Counted from the stretch's first letter, positions 2,303 through 19,481 are shown. The stretch is DNA of 20,741 nt from a virus (IMGVR_UViG_2630968533_000002); one strand, 5' to 3'. Translations and numbers: made by a program. The notes: a model not told the origin generated them from the sequence alone.

Positions 2303-2590
2303 TTATCGTAGCTGGCAATCTTTATCGCGATAACGCCTGAAGTACCCTCTCGCTTCCTCATCCATACCAAGAGCCGAATGAGTCCGCTTAACTGCCTGTC
2401 TTAAATCTCCGAATCTGTCTGTAGTTGCTGGTGGGCGTGCCGCCTTACGGATACATTCAGAGCGTCTGTTTGCTGCATGTTCACGTTCTTTATCGCCATC
2501 TGCCAGCATCATGACTTCTGCCCATCGTGCGGCAGCTCTCCGGTATAGCCCTTTTGACTCCAGCTCTTCAGCTTTCCTGTCCCTTATCAT
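2303..2590 (-). CDS. Small regulator, PerC-family-like (95 aa)
   Basis: ORF with N-terminal AEELESKGLYRRAAARW motif that I recall as typical of PerC/Pch-type activators; start lies 37-63 bp from a tandem operator array. Confidence 0.5.
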   Translation of the reverse strand: MIRDRKAEELESKGLYRRAAARWAEVMMLADGDKEREHAANRRSECIRKAARPPATTDRFGDLRQAVKRTHSALGMDEEARGYFRRYRDKDCQLR

Positions 2591-2849: not shown

Positions 2850-3305
2850 ATGGTCTTTGCAATGAGCAAATCTAATCTGATCGCGTTCCGCATCCCATCT
2901 GAATTGCAGGATGAGTTTAATCGGTCTGTTCTCGCTTCTGGAGGAGATAAAACCTCCTGGCTTGTTGATGCGATTCGCATGAAGCTGGGACAGCCGGAAA
3001 AGTCTATTGATTCACGAATGCTTGGGCTGGTGGAGCGCATGGAAAAAGCCGCTGCGTCGCTTATTGCCGGAAAGCCGAATATCCCACCAAAGCCATATAA
3101 CGAAACGGCAGTTATAAAGATCATTGCCGATACCATCCAACAGGGATTTGATAATGGGCGTGTGATAGCTGAACGGATCAATGAAGCAGGCTATCAAACA
3201 AAAGCTGGTAAAGCGTGGGATAAAGATATTTACAGCGCGTGGAAGCGTCAGGGAAACAATGCTGAAAAGTTAAAAGCGGTGATTGATTGTAAGGTCAGCG
3301 TATAA
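2850..3305 (+). CDS. Ribbon-helix-helix (Arc/Mnt/CopG-like) DNA-binding protein with uncharacterised C-terminal domain (151 aa; possible start at 2862)
   Basis: N-terminal LIAFRIPSELQDEF...SWLVDAIRMKL fits a beta-strand plus two-helix RHH pattern; preceded by palindromic elements at 2801-2834 (TATAAC..GTTATA, ATACAG..CTGTAT). Confidence 0.55.
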   Translation: MVFAMSKSNLIAFRIPSELQDEFNRSVLASGGDKTSWLVDAIRMKLGQPEKSIDSRMLGLVERMEKAAASLIAGKPNIPPKPYNETAVIKIIADTIQQGFDNGRVIAERINEAGYQTKAGKAWDKDIYSAWKRQGNNAEKLKAVIDCKVSV

Positions 3306-3384: not shown

Positions 3385-3585
3385 ATGAAAGGCAGAACGC
3401 CACACATTGAACATCAAGCCAACCACTTCTCGGATGTTCGCAATGAGATGATTGCCATTCGCGGTGATATGCACGGAATGGAGCGTCGCCTAGCAGATAA
3501 GATGGACGAGAATCAGAAGTGGATCATCGTCCTGTTGATTTTATCAATTCTTATCCCGCTACTTATCGCATTGGTCACAAAATGA
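3385..3585 (+). CDS. Small C-terminally anchored membrane protein (66 aa)
   Basis: GGTGAGGA Shine-Dalgarno 8 nt upstream of ATG; hydrophilic N-terminus followed by one hydrophobic helix WIIVLLILSILIPLLIALV at the C-terminus. Confidence 0.5.
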   Translation: MKGRTPHIEHQANHFSDVRNEMIAIRGDMHGMERRLADKMDENQKWIIVLLILSILIPLLIALVTK

Positions 3586-3613
3586 ATATCCAATGTGTAT
3601 GCTGTCGATGCTA

Positions 3614-3996
3614 CGCGCGCGTACTTGTCGCAAAATATCAGGCAAAGGCCAGATTCAGAAAGTCGTGATAACCACCAGCACAACATGAGATGTCATGTAA
3701 CGCGATTTATCACACCAGATACATGTGATTGGTGTACCCGCATAAAACATTGTCATAGCGCGTCCTGTGCGCATATACGCCGATAATCAACACATCACCA
3801 CCACTCTGTCTCATGTAGAGAACACTTTTATGGTATCCCCCGCCATCGTGCGCGTACTAGTCGGACGCAGTTGCAAAACTTTTTGCAACTGATACCCCTC
3901 GCGCGCGTACTTGTCTCGAAATTGGTGTTTTGCTGTGGCAGTGATATCAGAAAAATCTTCCTGTTTCACATAAAGCGGATATGCGCGTACTGTAAC
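3614..3996. repeat. Iteron-like array: four copies of GCGCGTACT(N)GT, including a perfect 16-bp direct repeat CGCGCGCGTACTTGTC at 3614-3629 and 3900-3915; perfect palindrome CAGTTGCAAAA-CT-TTTTGCAACTG at 3868-3891
   Basis: Read directly; occupies the intergenic region between the 66-aa gene and the membrane-protein gene. The ORF-track ORF 3595-3786 overlaps it and is probably not coding. Confidence 0.6.
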
Positions 3997-4107
3997 GGCC
4001 CCATCAACGGGGATCGGATTTGAAATCCCGACCCCAAGCTATGTACCAAATGCCATGTCTTGGATATATGATGATTGCCATTCTAAACAACGCTAAAGGG
4101 GGTTGGT

Positions 4108-4722
4108 GTGAGCAGAAAAGATACTAAAGAATTGCTAACTATCTGCATGGTGTACTTTTCAATTTATTTTTGTGCATACATGATAGTCCCAGATGAGTTT
4201 GAACATGGCAGTATTATTTATTCCATAACATTCTATTTTTTAGAGCTAACACCAATTTTGGCTATCCTTTTGGCAATACATATTTATTTTTCCTTAAAAA
4301 AAGAATCGACTAATTGGGAGAAGGTATGGAGAGACAGAGGATTTCTAACATCACCTAAAGATGATGCATATGAGAGTGATTTTTCTGACTTTATAACAAA
4401 CTACTACTCCAGCGAACAATTCAAAAATAGACTGTCTGATGTTTGGGAAACAGCAATGTATTCTATAGGGATTATATTATTGATACTTACTGGTATTGCT
4501 CAATATGTTTTTAACATTGACTTATCATTAAATCCTGAAAATTTAATATCGCCATTGATTTTTGGTGAGATATTGATCTTCTCATTCGGAATTTTCTTGA
4601 GTGTTGTTCTCTGCTCATTATGCAAGCTACTGACTAACAGGTATCCGGGTGAAGCAAGGAGAGCAAGAAAGGCAAATCCATATTATCTTTTATTTCCTAA
4701 TGGAGACAGCAGAGATATCTAA
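4108..4722 (+). CDS. Polytopic inner-membrane protein (204 aa, GTG start), very low GC; candidate superinfection-exclusion or abortive-infection protein
   Basis: AAAGGGGG Shine-Dalgarno 6 nt upstream of GTG; about six hydrophobic helices with a roughly 70-aa charged loop; AT-rich codons (by eye near 30% GC) against a roughly 50% background; convergent with the 701-aa gene. Confidence 0.6.
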   Translation: MSRKDTKELLTICMVYFSIYFCAYMIVPDEFEHGSIIYSITFYFLELTPILAILLAIHIYFSLKKESTNWEKVWRDRGFLTSPKDDAYESDFSDFITNYYSSEQFKNRLSDVWETAMYSIGIILLILTGIAQYVFNIDLSLNPENLISPLIFGEILIFSFGIFLSVVLCSLCKLLTNRYPGEARRARKANPYYLLFPNGDSRDI

Positions 4723-4741
4723 GCCATCCATGGCTAACCAG

Positions 4742-6847
4742 TTATTGAGCTTCTTTTTGTGATGCCTGTGCGACTCTGGTGAGCGATTGTGTGACCGTAC
4801 TGATCGCTCTGTCATATGCTGTGCTACCTTTTGGCGTATTTGCCAGACGTAACAAGGCATTTCGTATAACAGGGCTTTCGTATGCCTTCGCTGCTCCGCC
4901 TACGGCACCAGCAGCAGGAACAACAAACGCAGCCGTTTTTAGCATCCCCGCTAATACTGCTGCGTTTATGATGCCACCACCAACTAACAATCCATAAAGC
5001 TGCTGACCATTTAAGTTTTGAACGTTCGCTTTTGCCGCGTGTCTTGTATCGTTGAGGTATTTAATAACGCCGTCCAGTTCCTTTCCATGTACGCCTTTAA
5101 AGAAAGTTGCTGATTGCTTCCTGTTCCGGTGTAACGCATTAATAAACTTTTCAACACTAATATTTCCAGACGGATCAGTCGCCTTATCTACAGCATTCTG
5201 AACTATGGCTGCTCGTGCGTTTTGCCTACCATTGTCATCCAGAAGCCTGTAAAGCTGAGAACGTTCTGATGGGCTTTGGCTAAAAACGAGTTTTGTTACA
5301 TCCTCAGGCGTGGCCTTGCCGCTGGCTATTGCCTTTTGAACGCGCGTTCTTCCCATCATGTCATTGAATTTAGACCATGAGCGATCAACCCTTGCCATAT
5401 TAATGGCTTCGTCTGCTCCAAGATTTTTGGCTACGGCTTTTTTCATATCCGCCGTATATGCCTTGTAGATAATATCGCTGGCTTTCTGGAGCGTATCTTT
5501 ATCAACAGTGTCAGATGACGCCATAAATCTCTTTCGAAGATCGGTTCTGTTTTCCCTCGCCAGACGCAGGTCATTTGGTCCGCTGGTGATATCGTCTTTA
5601 AATTGCTGCAAGACTTTTACCGCGGCTCTATCCTGAGATTTGCCCGGGCGGCTTAACACGGCAATCTGATTGTCGATAGCTTTTACCGTGTTTGAGAGAT
5701 CGACAGGGGTATCCCCCATAGCGTCAATTATGCGGTTATATCGCTTTCCTGCTGCCTCAATGAATTTTTGTTGCCCTTTAGTCGCAGATTCATAAAGCTG
5801 TTTATCAGAAATGCCACCCAGACCATCGCTAAATGTTCTGACTAAATTTTCTCGTGCTTGTTGTTGATTCAGCCGATTCTTACCGGTTCCAAAAAAAGGA
5901 ACTCTTTCGCCTAATGTCTGAGCCTGACTCTGCATAAAGGTTTTATCTTTCAGCATGTCACTGGTCATTAACGGCAGATTTCTTTCCGATGCAAAGTCGA
6001 CAGCAGCCTTTGCTTCAGGCGACATATCACCACGAACAGCCCTCGAAACCGCACTCGCTGTATTTTCCAGCCCCTTACCAATACCACCAATGCCAGCAGA
6101 AATTACCGTTTGTAACGGATCAATACCTTCTCCACCAGCAAGGCTGGTGGCTCCCTGTAGTGCTAAATCTGTAGCTGCTGATTTTCCTATGGCACCAAGC
6201 ACCGTTCCAGCCCTGCCCGCTGGTGTAAACGCCAGCGCATTAGCCAGAAACGATGCCACGTCTTGCGGCGATAAACCCGGCTTGTTCAGAGCATAATCAC
6301 CGGATGGCAGGGAAACGATAGTGTTACCCTTCTCATCCTGCCTTAATTTCGCTCCCATGCTCTGAAGAATCTTTTCCTGAGATGCGTCAGAGCCGAAAAG
6401 TTGAGACCATCGAGCTTTTAGAGCATCCATGCTGAGTGAGGTTAACTCTGGGGCAAGGTCGACATTTTGCAGTCTCTCCATCTCTGGAGTCATTCGGCTT
6501 TCGCCTGTTATAGCATCGCGCATCGCAGCCCCAAGACTGGCTCCCTGTTCTGCTGAACGCTCAAGCCCCTCTCTTTGCTGAGTAGCTAACTTTGCATACC
6601 CTGACGCAAGAGAATTATCAGATGATGTATGTTGAATATTTTGAGTTGCTGATTGGGCTCGGTCTATTTCATTCGTTGATGGTAGTGGATAGGCAGCATA
6701 AAAAGCCTGCTTAGCCTGTGCTACACTTTCTCCGGCTTGCGGGGCAACGACTTCATTGAAGTATTGCTCCTGAGCCTGCGCTTTTTGTTCTGGTGCTAAC
6801 GCCTGATACTGTGGAGAGGCGATAACATCTTTCCATGCTTTAGCCAT
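4742..6847 (-). CDS. 701-aa Ala/Gln/Gly-rich protein with hydrophobic Gly-rich C-terminus; P22 gp16-like ejection (DNA-transfer) protein candidate
   Basis: Long ORF, start overlaps upstream stop; composition and position as last gene of the 153/225/473/701 series; similarity to gp16 inferred from size, order and composition only. Confidence 0.7.
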   Translation of the reverse strand: MAKAWKDVIASPQYQALAPEQKAQAQEQYFNEVVAPQAGESVAQAKQAFYAAYPLPSTNEIDRAQSATQNIQHTSSDNSLASGYAKLATQQREGLERSAEQGASLGAAMRDAITGESRMTPEMERLQNVDLAPELTSLSMDALKARWSQLFGSDASQEKILQSMGAKLRQDEKGNTIVSLPSGDYALNKPGLSPQDVASFLANALAFTPAGRAGTVLGAIGKSAATDLALQGATSLAGGEGIDPLQTVISAGIGGIGKGLENTASAVSRAVRGDMSPEAKAAVDFASERNLPLMTSDMLKDKTFMQSQAQTLGERVPFFGTGKNRLNQQQARENLVRTFSDGLGGISDKQLYESATKGQQKFIEAAGKRYNRIIDAMGDTPVDLSNTVKAIDNQIAVLSRPGKSQDRAAVKVLQQFKDDITSGPNDLRLARENRTDLRKRFMASSDTVDKDTLQKASDIIYKAYTADMKKAVAKNLGADEAINMARVDRSWSKFNDMMGRTRVQKAIASGKATPEDVTKLVFSQSPSERSQLYRLLDDNGRQNARAAIVQNAVDKATDPSGNISVEKFINALHRNRKQSATFFKGVHGKELDGVIKYLNDTRHAAKANVQNLNGQQLYGLLVGGGIINAAVLAGMLKTAAFVVPAAGAVGGAAKAYESPVIRNALLRLANTPKGSTAYDRAISTVTQSLTRVAQASQKEAQ

Positions 6848-8268
6848 TAATCACCCCATAGTGAAGAAAAATTACTGCTGGCTGCTGGCTGTGATACCTG
6901 CTCAGATTGCGGCAATGTCTGCGACGAAGAAGAAGTTCCTCTGTCAACTGCTGAAATAACCCGCAAAGCATCATAAGCTCGACCAGAAGCAGCTTTCAGC
7001 GAATTGAACTGGTTTTCCATCTTCCTACGCTTGGTATCAATGGTTTTTGTGGAATCACCAGGCTGAGGGAAATACATTTGATAATATTTGGACATTTCAG
7101 CTGGTAGGATAGATGCCCCTGTTTCCTGACGGAGTATTGCCATTATTGCGTCATTAGCATTAACAACGTATTGCTGCTCTGTTGGGCTGAGCGTTAAGTT
7201 AGCCAGCGTCCCATTACCCAAAGCATTATTAATGATCGCCACTCGCTGTGGGCTAAGCTGGTCTTTCAGTGTATCTATTGAATCAAGAGCATCCCTAACT
7301 CTGTATGCAAATCCAGCAGCTTTTTTAGCCCCTTCTGGCGACTTTTCCATGATCTTTTGGGCTGTTGGCAAAGCTATTGGACGAAACCCATCTCCAGATA
7401 TTGGCTGGTTTAGTTTTCCCTGCTCTTCACTTCCGTCTGTGTAGTATTTTGTGACAGTGCCATCATCGTTTTCTCTAACACTCATTAATTTTTTGGCGTT
7501 TGTATTAATTCCAGCCGCTGCCGCAAATGCCGCAGCCCCCTCTGGATCCGCCTTTAACATTTGCGCGTACTGATTGTAATTCTGCATTGCGGCTGTTGGT
7601 GCATATGCTGACGTTAACGCATTTGCTCGGCTAATATCCTGCCCTCTCGCCTGAAGTGCTTCTCCAGCCTGATTGCTGCGGATTGTCTCTGCCAACTTGC
7701 CACGCTCAATATCCCGACCTTCCATTCGATCTTTGATATCGAAGTACTTCTCATGACCGAGAGAAAACAGTGCCATACTACCAGCAAGCCGCTGGAATCC
7801 CTGTGGATCATTAACATGCATTTCGGCAACAGACTCAGGAGAAATCCCCAAGCGACGCATTTCATCTTCGTTATCTGCTATGAATTTTCCAAATGCCCCA
7901 GTTCCGAGCGAAGATGCGATTTGAGCACTAGTCGCAAGATGACCAATAGAATTTCTCTGGTCGTCATCAATAAAGCCCATCCCTTTCTGAACGCTTTCAA
8001 ATTCTTCTGGATACTCAGAAATAAGACTGCGCATTTTGTTTCTGTCTCCAGACTCAAAAGCCCCGGCATATGCTTTCTGAAACTCTGCTTTACGCTGTTG
8101 TTGACGTGCCTGCTGATTAATCTCAGCAACGCCTCTTATCCCCTGTAGCGCCATTAAACCTACGTTTGGCTGCTGCTGATACTGCACAGGCTGAGGAACG
8201 GAAGAACGAGGAGCATTATCATTTTGCGGTGCCATGCTAGGCAGCCCGCCAAGTTGCCATGTCGCCAT
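6847..8268 (-). CDS. 473-aa protein; P22 gp20-like ejection protein candidate
   Basis: Long ORF translationally coupled to both neighbours; size close to P22 gp20 (about 471 aa, from memory). Confidence 0.7.
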   Translation of the reverse strand: MATWQLGGLPSMAPQNDNAPRSSVPQPVQYQQQPNVGLMALQGIRGVAEINQQARQQQRKAEFQKAYAGAFESGDRNKMRSLISEYPEEFESVQKGMGFIDDDQRNSIGHLATSAQIASSLGTGAFGKFIADNEDEMRRLGISPESVAEMHVNDPQGFQRLAGSMALFSLGHEKYFDIKDRMEGRDIERGKLAETIRSNQAGEALQARGQDISRANALTSAYAPTAAMQNYNQYAQMLKADPEGAAAFAAAAGINTNAKKLMSVRENDDGTVTKYYTDGSEEQGKLNQPISGDGFRPIALPTAQKIMEKSPEGAKKAAGFAYRVRDALDSIDTLKDQLSPQRVAIINNALGNGTLANLTLSPTEQQYVVNANDAIMAILRQETGASILPAEMSKYYQMYFPQPGDSTKTIDTKRRKMENQFNSLKAASGRAYDALRVISAVDRGTSSSSQTLPQSEQVSQPAASSNFSSLWGD

Positions 8269-8945
8269 TAGAATCCAAGCCCCCCAACAAGACCAATAAG
8301 CCCACCACCAATAGCGCCTGCCGCAGTACCTATTCCAGGAACAACGGAACCAAGTTGAGCACCCGCTAAAGCGCCTGATGCTGCCCCACCAATACCACGC
8401 GCAAGACTGGATGGCTGCTGCGCCTGACCTGCACGAATAGCGCCAAGCCCCTGCAAGAGTTGTCCGGTATTATTGGCGTAGTTTTGCCCTGCCGTTGCCT
8501 GCCCTGATGCCGCATTCATCCCGACATTTAGCAGGTTTCCATAATTTTGCATTTGCCCACTAAGCCAATTGTTATAAAGCATGGGCGCAATGGAAGATAA
8601 CTGGTTACTGGTAGCTGTTGAGCCAAGCCCCCCGGTAGCTTCTGCTGAGACAAGGTTCTGATAACGGGCCTGATCTGCCTGTGTTTTATATAAACCAGAA
8701 CCAAAGAAATCATTCGCGGCTTTATTCTGCCCTTCCAGAGTCATCAGTCCTTGTAGTTGTTGTAAAGCAGGCAATCCGACTTCTGCATACGGCTTGAGAT
8801 TATTCATCACCGTATTCCACTGCTCGCGCTGCAAATCAATTGCCTGCTGCTGGGCCTTCGCCTGAGCTTTAGAGGCACCACCATCACCGCCTTTTTCGTA
8901 TACGGCACGATTGAGATGTTTATGAGCTATATGGGTAATTAACAT
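8268..8945 (-). CDS. 225-aa protein with Gly-rich hydrophobic C-terminal tail; P22 gp7-like ejection protein candidate
   Basis: ORF overlapping neighbours; C-terminus GIGGAASGALAGAQLGSVVPGIGTAAGAIGGGLIGLVGGLGF; size close to P22 gp7 (about 229 aa, from memory). Confidence 0.7.
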   Translation of the reverse strand: MLITHIAHKHLNRAVYEKGGDGGASKAQAKAQQQAIDLQREQWNTVMNNLKPYAEVGLPALQQLQGLMTLEGQNKAANDFFGSGLYKTQADQARYQNLVSAEATGGLGSTATSNQLSSIAPMLYNNWLSGQMQNYGNLLNVGMNAASGQATAGQNYANNTGQLLQGLGAIRAGQAQQPSSLARGIGGAASGALAGAQLGSVVPGIGTAAGAIGGGLIGLVGGLGF

Positions 8946-9400
8946 TCGCTGAATTCCTTATATTGTTGCCGAGTTAACTGATAAAGCGTTACGCCGACGG
9001 GTTTACCACATCTGATATAAGCATCATCAAGGTGACCAACACGGGTAGCGCCAAGCAAACGGATAATTGCCCGTCCGTATTTGGTGGTGTCAGGAACCAT
9101 GGTAATGCTGTTAAGGAATGGTGAGTTTTCGAGAAGCCATTTGCAGAATAATCGATGCCCTTGCAGTGCATATTCACCACGGAATCCGGGGTCGTACACC
9201 GCATGGCATTCAACAATGCTATGCCAGAAGTTACGCACTTCATGAACGCCAGCCAGCACCAATCCTTCGTAGATGCCGAGATATACCGCATCAGGCTTGA
9301 TGTAGTACGTGTGCCCCGGCTCAACAATATTTTCGGTATTGCCAGGATCGTTAAGAAAGGCCTGTAATCGCACAGGGTTATCAATAAATTTTAGTTCCAT
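8939..9400 (-). CDS. 153-aa protein, first large gene of the operon; gp14-like position
   Basis: ORF overlapping the 225-aa gene by 7 bp; function unknown; assignment by position only. Confidence 0.6.
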   Translation of the reverse strand: MELKFIDNPVRLQAFLNDPGNTENIVEPGHTYYIKPDAVYLGIYEGLVLAGVHEVRNFWHSIVECHAVYDPGFRGEYALQGHRLFCKWLLENSPFLNSITMVPDTTKYGRAIIRLLGATRVGHLDDAYIRCGKPVGVTLYQLTRQQYKEFSEC

Positions 9401-15445: not shown

Positions 15446-15636
15446 TTTTCACCCCCAAGAATTACCAGCTCGGCACGGGCATCGTTAACCAAAGATGAGC
15501 ACGCTTTAATCGCATCCACGACATCAGCAGCGTCCATTTCTTCAGCTGAAAGACTGACAGCAACCAGGACAGCCGCTGCTTGCTCGATTAATTGAAGTGC
15601 GGACGTAAGGCGAGGGGTATTAATTGAGTTATTCAT
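15442..15636 (-). CDS. Hypothetical small protein (64 aa from MNNSIN)
   Basis: Internal ATG at 15636 with G-rich Shine-Dalgarno-like sequence, overlapping the upstream stop (ATGAATAA). Confidence 0.4.
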   Translation of the reverse strand: MNNSINTPRLTSALQLIEQAAAVLVAVSLSAEEMDAADVVDAIKACSSLVNDARAELVILGGEK

Positions 15637-16657
15637 TGGTTGCCCCCGTTTTTCCTGGCATTTCGCCACCTTCCAGCAGGAAATGAACGTCACGAACGGC
15701 GAGATCCAATATCGCGAGTAACGCCTTCAGTCTTTCGTCTCGTGAGGGAGAGTTGCTCACCAGAATGTCGTTAATCACTTCTGTCAGTGTGATGATCTGG
15801 CTTGTGCGTTCGAGGGGATCCATATGCACATCGTAGGTTTTAATCATGTGCCACCTCCATGCGGATACGACCAGCAAAAAAGCAGACGTGATCGCGCACC
15901 AGAGAACGGCGAGCATCGCGTTCAGACTCGGCAGCAATATGATGAATTTTGGCGGTAATTGTCGGGCAATCGCGGCGAACTGCGGCGATAATCCAGATAA
16001 ATTGCGGTTTTTGGGTAGGGGTAGTAGCCAGCATGTGGCAGCCTCCTTGATTGATGGTTTATAGCCACCGCCCAAGAGACCAATCTTGCTGGCGGTGGAC
16101 TGTACGGAGTTGGCCTTACTGGCAATCAAGGAAACCAGCCTACCCGAAGGTAGCCCCATACAGCCCACCATTGATAAGGTGTGCGTGTGCGCCGATACAA
16201 AAAAAGACGCTGGCGCGTCATGTATCGCCTCGATTGTCAGCGGGAGGCCAATCCCGGCACCCGTTTTATGAGGTGCCTTATAACCATAAACCGTGTTGCC
16301 GCATAACGGCAAGCTCTTTTTTATGGACTCCGAAAACTCACTATTGGAAGCACCAGATGCACAATACATCGCGCTCATTTCGTTAACGTCGCGAGTGTGG
16401 ACGAAGGTTTTTGTGGAGTCACTACGCGAGCAGAGAAAGCCATCTACGACCAGAAATTCTCTGGCGCTGCCGCTGACCTTCTCAACGCTAACATCATCGA
16501 CCGTAATTTCTGACATAGTTAAGGCATCCGCTCCTACCACCAGTAAATGATAAACTTTGCTTGTATCTGCTGTATTAATGCCTGACTTTGACGCCATATT
16601 GCTGGATTTTGGCGACATGCCAGCCAGTGAAAATATCTTCTTCTGGACGGGTATCAT
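15629..16657 (-). CDS. 342-codon ORF, Ser/Leu-rich; the C-terminal 72 codons (15629-15847) may be a separate gene; a second ORF is embedded out of frame at 15840-16034
   Basis: Start ATG at 16657 overlaps the TGA of the upstream 59-aa gene (ATGA); internal MIKTYD start at 15847 has a GGAGGTGG Shine-Dalgarno; true gene structure is uncertain. Confidence 0.4.
15840..16034 (-). CDS. 64-aa ORF, possibly Icd-like (host cell-division inhibitor family), embedded out of frame in the 342-codon ORF
   Basis: Canonical AAGGAGG Shine-Dalgarno 7 nt upstream of ATG; [10 protein letters not shown]...[14 protein letters not shown] motif loosely recalls Icd-like proteins of P4-type elements (memory only). Confidence 0.4.
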   Translation of the reverse strand: MLATTPTQKPQFIWIIAAVRRDCPTITAKIHHIAAESERDARRSLVRDHVCFFAGRIRMEVAHD

Positions 16658-18381: not shown

Positions 18382-18405
18382 AGGCACAGTAATGATACTG
18401 TGCCT
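18382..18405 (-). terminator. Intrinsic terminator hairpin (10-bp stem AGGCACAGTA/TACTGTGCCT, 4-nt loop) with U-rich tail on the minus strand
   Basis: Read directly; 16 bp downstream of the stop of the 321-aa gene and upstream of alpA. Confidence 0.55.
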
Positions 18406-18420
18406 GAATAGTTAGCTACT

Positions 18421-19386
18421 CTACCCCTTACCGTTGGCGGCAGCACGTAAGTGTCTCAAAATCACATCTTCATTTGTGATTGCTAACGGTGGAATTTCGT
18501 CTTTATGAGCCACTATGCAATCCCGCCACTTCTCAGGGCTTATTTCTTTCTTTTTGCCACGGCATTCATCAGGATACTTTGACAAAAGATATATTGCTGA
18601 TTTGAAAAGTTTTTCCCTGTTTTCAGCATGTCTCTCGGCATTATGGTTGCTATTTTTTATTTCAGGTATTAGTTCCTGTTCTACCGCCATTTCGTATCGT
18701 TTTTTGCTCTTAGCTGCGTCAAAACTTCCATTAACCTTTGCGTCGTGAAGGTATTCTAAATCAGCCTTTGTTATATAAATGTTTTTATCTGACAGGCTAC
18801 TCAGGTGAATCTGGGAACTTTGCATTTTGAATTTATATAGATCACAATCAAATGTTGCTTCAAGTCGCACATATGGCTCTCCACATTCTTGTGAATGATA
18901 ATGTCGTTTTGTACTACCGCGTACACGCAACAATCCACATGCAATTGATTTTCTTACAATAAAAGAGTTTTTGCCAATTTGTTCAAAAACATTTTTATTG
19001 TCTCTGTCTTCAACTGTCAGTGGTTTATGTGCATAAAATAGCTCATAAGCACCGCTTTCAGATGCTGGGATATAAACTTCGTTGCTTGCGCTGGTAATAA
19101 GAAAAGGAAATGTAAACCTTACTTCTTCTGGGTACATAAGTAATAAATCAGTTATAAAATCAGCATCTTTTTTGAAGTGGATGGTGGCATCAGCTTCAAT
19201 GAAATCAAGAAAGTCAGCATAGACATAAAAGTCTATATGTAGTCTATCTTTCCAATGCCATATATCATCAATTTCACAATTTAATAATTTTGATGCTCGC
19301 TCTATCGTGCAGTAGTCCAAAGGTGGAATACCTGATTCCTGCCATAAATTTCTATGCACCGCAGTTGTTTCATGAGAGTCGTTCAT
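18421..19386 (-). CDS. Orphan AT-rich 321-aa protein of unknown function (cargo gene between int and alpA)
   Basis: Long ORF with AAAGGTGA Shine-Dalgarno-like sequence; GC clearly below neighbours (by eye about 37%); own terminator; no recognisable domain. Confidence 0.65.
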   Translation of the reverse strand: MNDSHETTAVHRNLWQESGIPPLDYCTIERASKLLNCEIDDIWHWKDRLHIDFYVYADFLDFIEADATIHFKKDADFITDLLLMYPEEVRFTFPFLITSASNEVYIPASESGAYELFYAHKPLTVEDRDNKNVFEQIGKNSFIVRKSIACGLLRVRGSTKRHYHSQECGEPYVRLEATFDCDLYKFKMQSSQIHLSSLSDKNIYITKADLEYLHDAKVNGSFDAAKSKKRYEMAVEQELIPEIKNSNHNAERHAENREKLFKSAIYLLSKYPDECRGKKKEISPEKWRDCIVAHKDEIPPLAITNEDVILRHLRAAANGKG

Positions 19387-19481
19387 TGCGTCACCTTTTA
19401 CGCTGCGCCTTATTTTGTGATTGAGCCAGGCGGTAAGGCTTCCCGCTTTTCGCCCCGTCGAGCTAGGCTCAATCTATTCAG

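Follow-up and report, generated by a model that had tools for sequence, protein, structure and literature searches.

A divergent candidate member of the SieA superinfection-exclusion family on a yicC-dinD island of Escherichia coli

The locus and its island

The stretch of DNA analysed here, referred to as the window, comprises 20,741 nucleotides of the viral sequence IMGVR_UViG_2630968533_000002. It contains an open reading frame (ORF) for a 204-aa protein, and the stop codon of this ORF lies 19 bp from that of a gp16-like gene on the opposite strand (Table 1). The two genes are convergent, as had been noted in an earlier description made before any database search (the sequence-only reading). 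In phage P22, the annotation of NC_002371 gives the gene order 16 >, < sieA, < orf59a, < mnt and, beyond mnt, arc >, ant > and 9. The ORF had been proposed to occupy the position of the superinfection-exclusion gene sieA, and both this gene order and the location of its orthologues, which occupy the sieA slot of P22-like prophage regions, bear this out. In Citrobacter, in a Serratia-type contig and in Providencia/Proteus, the orthologues (34-50% identity) are found between mnt (Arc/RHH) and gene 16 and are convergent with gene 16, an arrangement identical to that of P22. Beyond mnt, arc and an antirepressor gene follow where the contig reaches that far, and a homologue of the tailspike gene (gene 9) is visible in the Citrobacter loci only. 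In the window, the ORF is located downstream of an RHH-like gene at the mnt position, and tailspike, ant and arc are absent. The ORF shares its strand with this gene and with that of a 66-aa membrane protein, as had been stated. The naming of the former as an RHH regulator should be read with caution, the 151-aa product resembling Mnt over 37 aa (BLASTP E = 0.001) with no match in Pfam. Divergent from it, where P22 has arc-ant, a PerC-family transcriptional activator is encoded (2303-2590, minus strand, E = 3e-33).

Table 1. Positions of the features discussed; window coordinates unless a locus is named. Transmembrane (TM) segments and the sidedness of loops are predictions.
Feature	Position	Strand	Description
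151-aa protein	2850-3305	+	Weak Mnt/RHH-like N-terminus; position that mnt holds in P22
66-aa protein	3385-3585	+	C-terminal TM segment; phrog_6324 (function not assigned)
Conserved 0.5-kb block	3605-4107		~97% identical whatever cassette or upstream gene
Shine-Dalgarno sequence AAAGGGGG	4095-4102	+	5 nt upstream of GTG 4108; together with the GTG, common to strains carrying other cassettes in the slot
sieA-like ORF	4108-4722	+	204 aa; GTG start, TAA stop
TM1	4132-4188	+	aa 9-27; preceding N-terminus cytoplasmic (3 K/R); from hydropathy, AlphaFold2 model and K+R counts
TM2	4213-4293	+	aa 36-62; preceded by the short acidic periplasmic loop PDEFEHGS
Cytoplasmic loop	4294-4449	+	aa 63-114; 8 K/R; clade-specific segment KKESTNW..WRDRGF and family motif
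Family motif 1, YSSEQFKNRLSD	4405-4440	+	aa 100-111
TM3	4450-4515	+	aa 115-136; from hydropathy and AlphaFold2 model
TM4	4549-4632	+	aa 148-175; from hydropathy and AlphaFold2 model
Family motif 2, RYPGEARRARK	4639-4671	+	aa 178-188; corresponds to the published FxRYPxEAxxFNK
gp16-like ejection protein	4742-6847	-	701 aa; PHROG 770 'DNA transfer protein', E = 1.7e-161; RefSeq 'P22-gp16 family phage DNA ejection protein'
gp20-like ejection protein	6847-8268	-	473 aa; Pfam Inj_translocase, E = 1e-57
gp7-like ejection protein	8268-8945	-	225 aa; Pfam P22_gp7, E = 7e-73
P22 gene-14-like protein	8939-9400	-	DUF2824, 7e-62; P22-like similarity stops at 9400
C4 antisense RNA	16088-16175	-	Rfam, above gathering score; 79 bits
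isrK Hfq-binding RNA	16200-16276	-	Rfam, above gathering score; 65 bits
int-alpA RNA	19407-19473	-	Rfam, above gathering score; 61 bits
Slot equivalents with other cassettes	L013:3466-3855; L014:3809-4207; L015:3467-3904		

The GTG at 4108 was taken as the start codon because the alternative cassettes found at this site in other strains all use the same Shine-Dalgarno sequence and GTG, with the sequences diverging straight after the start codon. An ATG start at M14 was rejected on this ground and because the relatives of the protein align from residues 5-8. No promoter or terminator was detected near the ORF by a simple scan.

The ORF is far more AT-rich than its surroundings, as had been described. 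Its GC content is 0.330 (GC3 0.307), whereas the window has 0.467 and the 1.5-kb flanks have 0.458, and no other 615-bp segment of the window has a lower value (window mean 0.467, SD 0.04). Recent acquisition had been suggested from this AT-richness. However, the sieA-type genes of P22 (0.337), the E. coli HS prophage HS1 (0.363), Morganella (0.315), Citrobacter (0.380), the Serratia-type contig (0.350) and Providencia (0.355) have similarly low GC, and all sieA-type genes examined are 7-15 points under their own flanks. As every one of them is equally AT-rich relative to its flanks, AT-richness is weak evidence for a recent acquisition; low GC is a trait of the sieA family and not a dating tool. 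A second AT-rich trough is located at ~18400-19400 (minus strand), where the 615-bp windows from about 18.7 kb onwards are below 0.36 GC. It overlaps a 321-aa ORF (18421-19386) that has no Pfam match and adjoins the integrase gene.

The window is not a P22-like prophage but a yicC-dinD island that keeps the ejection-protein genes (14-7-20-16), with similarity to P22-like phages stopping at the end of gene 14. Nearly the whole window is one ~20-kb island without capsid or tail genes. In E. coli 23CRST013 (locus L024) the same island is found between yicC and dinD, and positions 1-837 of the window are the chromosomal dinD. The part from 10.2 to 20.7 kb is an integrase/AlpA-type/AntA/ash/primase (DUF5906) module with the C4-antisense, isrK and int-alpA RNAs, which point to a P1/P7/P4-type RNA immunity in the island; a 342-aa ORF (15629-16657) overlapping Rfam RNAs may be spurious. 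The segment from the PerC gene through the RHH-like, 66-aa and 204-aa ORFs to gp16 was also found beside thrW, where it is cut by IS1; in L001, IS1 stands in place of the genes beyond gp16. The gp16 gene is a pseudogene in 23CRST013, which carries the 204-aa ORF, and in L013, which carries another cassette. We found no direct description in the literature of the yicC-dinD island or of satellites with ejection proteins; one preprint mentions PICIs integrated in yicC. Two further ORFs on the minus strand were noted at the start of the window. For DinD, a 278-aa protein with a Bro-N domain, PADLOC gave matches to the candidate-defence model PDC-S13 (E = 6e-125) and to the N-terminal third of the model 'Type I specificity subunit', and a 254-aa ORF (1369-2133) shows weak likeness to an HslV-family peptidase PHROG (E = 3e-13) with no Pfam match.

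Similarity to SieA and predicted topology

The sole family match of the 204-aa protein in Pfam, PHROGs, PADLOC and NCBIfam was PHROG 7745 ('superinfection exclusion SieA-like', E = 4.4e-4), which is likewise the only family matched by its relatives P0003 (2e-6) and P0018 (5e-4). BLASTP aligned the protein with P22 SieA at 29% identity over 108 aa (E = 8e-8), the alignment ending in a common RYPGEA, and with HS1 SieA at 34% over 118 aa (E = 2e-9). A profile comparison with SieA had been suggested as a check, and with hhalign the clade of the window protein matched a type-B set (HS1 relatives plus Morganella and Vibrio proteins) with a probability of 99.3% and an E-value of 1.7e-20. This alignment pairs residues 1-188 with 1-189 and includes both N-terminal TM helices. 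With the P22-type (type A) SieA the match extends over the C-terminal 100 residues (96.4%, E = 1.3e-9).

Homology to a transporter or housekeeping membrane protein, which the sequence-only reading had named as the outcome that would speak against its proposal, was not found in Pfam, NCBIfam or PDB sequence and structure searches. The sole Pfam signal was MnhB at E = 0.018, far below the cut-off of that family. The protein had no match in PADLOC and none in NCBIfam or in the PDB sequence search, and the profiles of PADLOC, Pfam, NCBIfam and PHROGs gave no match to an Abi, holin, T4 Imm-type or other catalogued defence or lysis family. Foldseek of the AlphaFold2 model against BFVD and PDB gave no match at E <= 1e-3, which is uninformative for a helical membrane protein.

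The word-indexed protein search retrieved only E. coli clusters, a 50%-identical protein of Citrobacter freundii and a fragment. An HMM search of 1.84 billion representatives added proteins of Serratia fonticola (40%) and Providencia rettgeri/Proteus mirabilis (34%, P0020) and one metagenomic protein, together with about 35 more distant proteins of 160-200 aa that carry both SieA motifs. Among 50,697 phage records, megablast and tblastn of the region and the protein found nothing; the gene is therefore absent from the sequenced phages of that set. Species-representative genomes, scanned twice, likewise yielded no relative. The precomputed annotations of P0001-P0003 and P0020 do not include PF26849 (SIEA), while it is present for the type A, type B, Morganella and Aeromonas proteins, indicating that the clade is beyond the reach of the current PF26849 model. 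The clade was probably missed by an earlier listing since pairwise E-values of 1e-7 to 1e-9 fail in BLASTp at database scale.

Judged by these sequence comparisons, the 204-aa protein is a full-length SieA homologue that is divergent and so far unannotated. The system itself is not of a new kind: the protein adds a new sequence type to a known defence family, and the element that hosts it is unusual.

The protein had been described as having six helices and a charged loop of roughly 70 aa; neither figure held. The Kyte-Doolittle plot has four hydrophobic peaks, and the AlphaFold2 model (pLDDT 71.8) has four long hydrophobic helices (3-26, 34-76, 104-135 and 149-176). The K+R counts for the N-terminus, loop 1, loop 2, loop 3 and the C-terminus are 3/0/8/0/6 and therefore fit four TM segments with both termini inside and a cytoplasmic loop of about 52 aa (63-114). 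Six TM helices were ruled out by the hydropathy, the model and the K+R distribution taken together. We thus regard the protein as a predicted four-TM protein with, by the positive-inside rule, a cytoplasmic N-terminus, 52-aa loop and C-terminal tail, the periplasmic face consisting of just two short, acidic loops.

In an alignment of 28 SieA-family proteins (types A and B, the window clade and others), the residues S101, N107, R108, R178, Y179, P180, A183 and K188 do not vary; D111 and E182 are nearly invariant. These residues belong to two motifs, YSSExxxNRxSD where TM3 enters the membrane from the cytoplasm and RYPGEAxxxxK directly after TM4, both of which are juxtamembrane and cytoplasmic in the predicted topology. 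A conserved cytoplasmic motif of SieA, FxRYPxEAxxFNK, has been described by Leavitt et al. 2024 (PMC10883804). It is partly kept in the window protein as TNRYPGEARRARK, with the core RYPxEA....K present and the F and FN positions differing.

Two types of SieA, represented by P22 (type A) and HS1 (type B), have been characterised: both are located in the inner membrane, and each is necessary and sufficient to prevent P22-like phages, and no others, from injecting DNA, and the SieAs of E. coli were stated to be of type A or B only (PMC10883804). The window protein is at most 34% identical to either type and to any SieA with a tested phenotype. Like the window protein, HS1 SieA (EcHS_A0321 = ECHS_RS01600, 212 aa) has four predicted TM segments, the extra one relative to P22 SieA being N-terminal, and both proteins carry YS.E...NRLSD and NRYPGEAR..K and are encoded by low-GC genes convergent with gp16. 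They differ in the N-terminal half and the loop, the BLASTP alignment covering the C-terminal 118 aa only, and in the HS1-type C-terminal tail (..SSKEFRDSI), which is missing from the window protein. In addition, HS1 SieA scores far better against PHROG 7745 (E = 6.5e-21), its close relatives have the Pfam SIEA match that the window clade lacks, and HS1 is a complete P22-like prophage at thrW, which the window element is not. P22 SieA (164 aa; PHROG 7745; PF26849) is encoded in the same slot and orientation relative to gene 16, by an equally AT-rich gene. Its residues 54-158 are homologous to the window protein, and the motifs, the cytoplasmic loop and the tail are shared. However, P22 SieA has three predicted TM segments without the N-terminal extension, and the window protein is longer at the C-terminus by about 9 residues (16 compared to 7 after RYPGEA...K).

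The window protein is neither type A nor type B. Type C, from Providencia, Morganella and Proteus, has been described as having ~40 extra N-terminal residues with an additional TM segment and ~10 extra C-terminal residues (PMC10883804). The window protein, 40 aa longer than P22 SieA and with an extra N-terminal TM segment, resembles this description, the comparison being with the description and not with the sequences of MU9_2893 and HMPREF1563_1315. Outside the enterics, the proteins nearest to it come from Providencia rettgeri and Proteus mirabilis (P0020), genera named for type C. The SIEA-positive Morganella protein P0033 shares only 25% identity with it and has more in common with type B (37%). 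The window protein is thus either a divergent relative of type C, new to E. coli, or a fourth type, type C having been compared by description.

An exchangeable cassette in the sieA slot

The 204-aa ORF was found in 102 out of 5426 complete E. coli genomes, in 101 of which it is at least 99% identical, and it occurs in no fewer than two chromosomal contexts (thrW and yicC). In every match listed among the E. coli genomes carrying it, it is an ordinary CDS annotated as 'hypothetical protein'. The E. coli alleles differ by four synonymous and two non-synonymous variant codons, too little variation to show purifying selection, and dS between the genera of the clade is saturated.

The flanks are common to 612 genomes, about 500 of which have them without the sieA-like gene. 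Compared to other E. coli strains, a flank identity of ~97-98% ends at 4111 and resumes at 4722-4724, and the intervening slot (window 4112-4721) holds alternative cassettes, which encode either a 129-aa multi-TM protein with no family match or a signal-peptide protein of ~120 aa (phrog_2651, function not assigned). The gene is thus exchanged as an exact start-to-stop coding cassette behind a conserved 0.5-kb block. This block presumably carries expression signals, though no promoter was detected in it. Within it lie a CGCGCGTACT(TGTC) repeat in four copies (at 3614, 3847, 3900 and 3982), a perfect 11-bp hairpin (3868-3891) and a minus-strand ORF that is intact in strain SX45 (123 aa) and frameshifted in the window. 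Upstream of the block, the site of the 66-aa TM protein varies as well: an 'Abi family protein' is encoded there in MMC-J-0091 and an ImmA/IrrE metallopeptidase pair in 23CRST013 (loci L013 and L024). The stretch from the RHH-like gene to gp16 looks like a defence hotspot.

Possible function

The sequence-only reading had proposed a superinfection-exclusion or an abortive-infection protein. The first part of this proposal is supported by PHROG, BLASTP, hhalign, the motifs and the synteny, all of which point to a SieA homologue, while abortive infection found no support. By analogy with the characterised members, we consider it probable that the window protein is a divergent member of the SieA family that keeps P22-like phages from injecting their DNA. 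As with P22 and HS1 SieA, it would be expressed constitutively and at a low level from the resident element and would be located in the inner membrane, although expression is not assured, given that the surrounding island is mosaic and decaying. On adsorption of a P22-like phage and release of its ejection proteins (gp7, gp20 and gp16), the protein would interfere with the forming or opening of the gp20/gp16 DNA conduit at the inner membrane, gp16 being presumed to represent the target class of SieA. The phage DNA would then never reach the cytoplasm, and the cell would survive without the cost of an abortive infection. For the SieAs described earlier, escape requires changes in the C-terminal parts of gp16 and gp20, and a high multiplicity of infection partly overcomes the block (PMC10883804). 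In E. coli, the P22-like virion genes would have been lost from the island and the exclusion gene kept intact as a host-protecting cassette.

The protein could also be a true SieA homologue with a different target range or role, directed at another group of short-tailed phages or acting with the co-resident ejection-protein genes. The wider SieA family is indeed large, the 1.84 billion representatives yielding 43 clusters of mostly 160-180-aa proteins, and some members lie outside P22-like prophages, as in an Aeromonas integrative element (L019-L021) and in the unrelated context of L023. The window clade moreover has its own conserved loop segment, KKESTNW..WRDRGF, and fusion proteins exist that join an N-terminal segment of gp16 to a SieA domain. 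Nevertheless, we regard a different target range or role as unlikely, since the window protein's closest relatives all occupy the canonical sieA slot in P22-like prophage regions, and since types A and B are only ~24% identical and yet have indistinguishable exclusion spectra (PMC10883804), so divergence alone predicts no new specificity. The gene might instead be a relic, an intact-looking ORF that is unexpressed or inactive and carried along in a decaying prophage fragment. This would be in line with the loss of all P22-like genes except 14-7-20-16 from the island, the gp16 pseudogene of some strains, the frameshifted ORF in the upstream block and the outcome of the promoter scan. It is, however, difficult to reconcile with a full-length ORF that is conserved to at least 99% in 101 complete genomes and in more than one chromosomal context, with the Shine-Dalgarno sequence and GTG kept in common with the alternative cassettes and with all family-invariant residues intact, and we find it very unlikely. 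Hardly credible is a toxic membrane effector, of the abortive-infection or another type (holin-like or depolarising), that infection would trigger. The gene is small, AT-rich and multi-TM, and its hotspot has an Abi-family gene nearby in other strains, which could suggest one, but the SieA-like profile is the only family matched, with no hit to PADLOC, holin or Abi families, and the SieA family blocks entry at minimal growth cost (PMC10883804). Exclusion of P22-like phages at DNA injection therefore remains our preferred reading of the gene.

The fusion proteins P0050 (430 aa, Aeromonas salmonicida; L019-L021) and P0038 (277 aa) consist of a signal peptide, a gp16-type segment and a three-TM SieA domain. 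Their gp16-type segments match the first 54-62 residues of the window's gp16-like protein at 61% (P0050, E = 7e-19) and 49% identity (P0038, E = 1e-14), and P0050 has a recorded Pfam SIEA match. Their genes lie on small integrase/AlpA/YagK-type islands and not in P22-like prophages, and the fusions could be a Rosetta-stone hint that SieA contacts the N-terminus of gp16. In Vibrio proteolyticus (L022), a small island has the order integrase, AlpA, Bro-N, gp20 (Inj_translocase), gp16 and SIEA (203 aa), with the SIEA gene pointing the same way as gp16. It is a second example of ejection-protein genes together with sieA outside a complete P22-like prophage. Three observations, namely the yicC island with 14-7-20-16 and the sieA slot, the Vibrio island and the Aeromonas fusions, would fit a mobile module of ejection-protein genes plus sieA on integrase/AlpA islands or satellites. 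In such a module, SieA would dock to the N-terminus of gp16, the fusions would be periplasmic decoys and the ejection-protein genes functional partners. We offer this as a speculation with a rather small chance of being right. If true, the co-resident ejection-protein genes would be partners and not fossils, for example by supplying SieA-insensitive ejection proteins from a satellite.

Among the characterised exclusion proteins of short-tailed phages, SieA is, to our knowledge, alone in acting at the inner membrane, and the gp16 and gp20 proteins that it recognises are very diverse. The clade described here adds a much more divergent type of SieA sequence that keeps just about ten invariant residues; their juxtamembrane and, by prediction, cytoplasmic location narrows what the function requires. 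The sieA slot itself is an exact start-to-stop expression cassette able to hold unrelated small envelope proteins. The annotation of the gene as a 'hypothetical protein' in RefSeq, together with the missing Pfam SIEA match, means that SieA-type genes are overlooked in about 2% of complete E. coli genomes. For phage therapy or typing with P22-like phages, the strains carrying the gene may, by analogy with the known SieAs, resist at the step of DNA entry.
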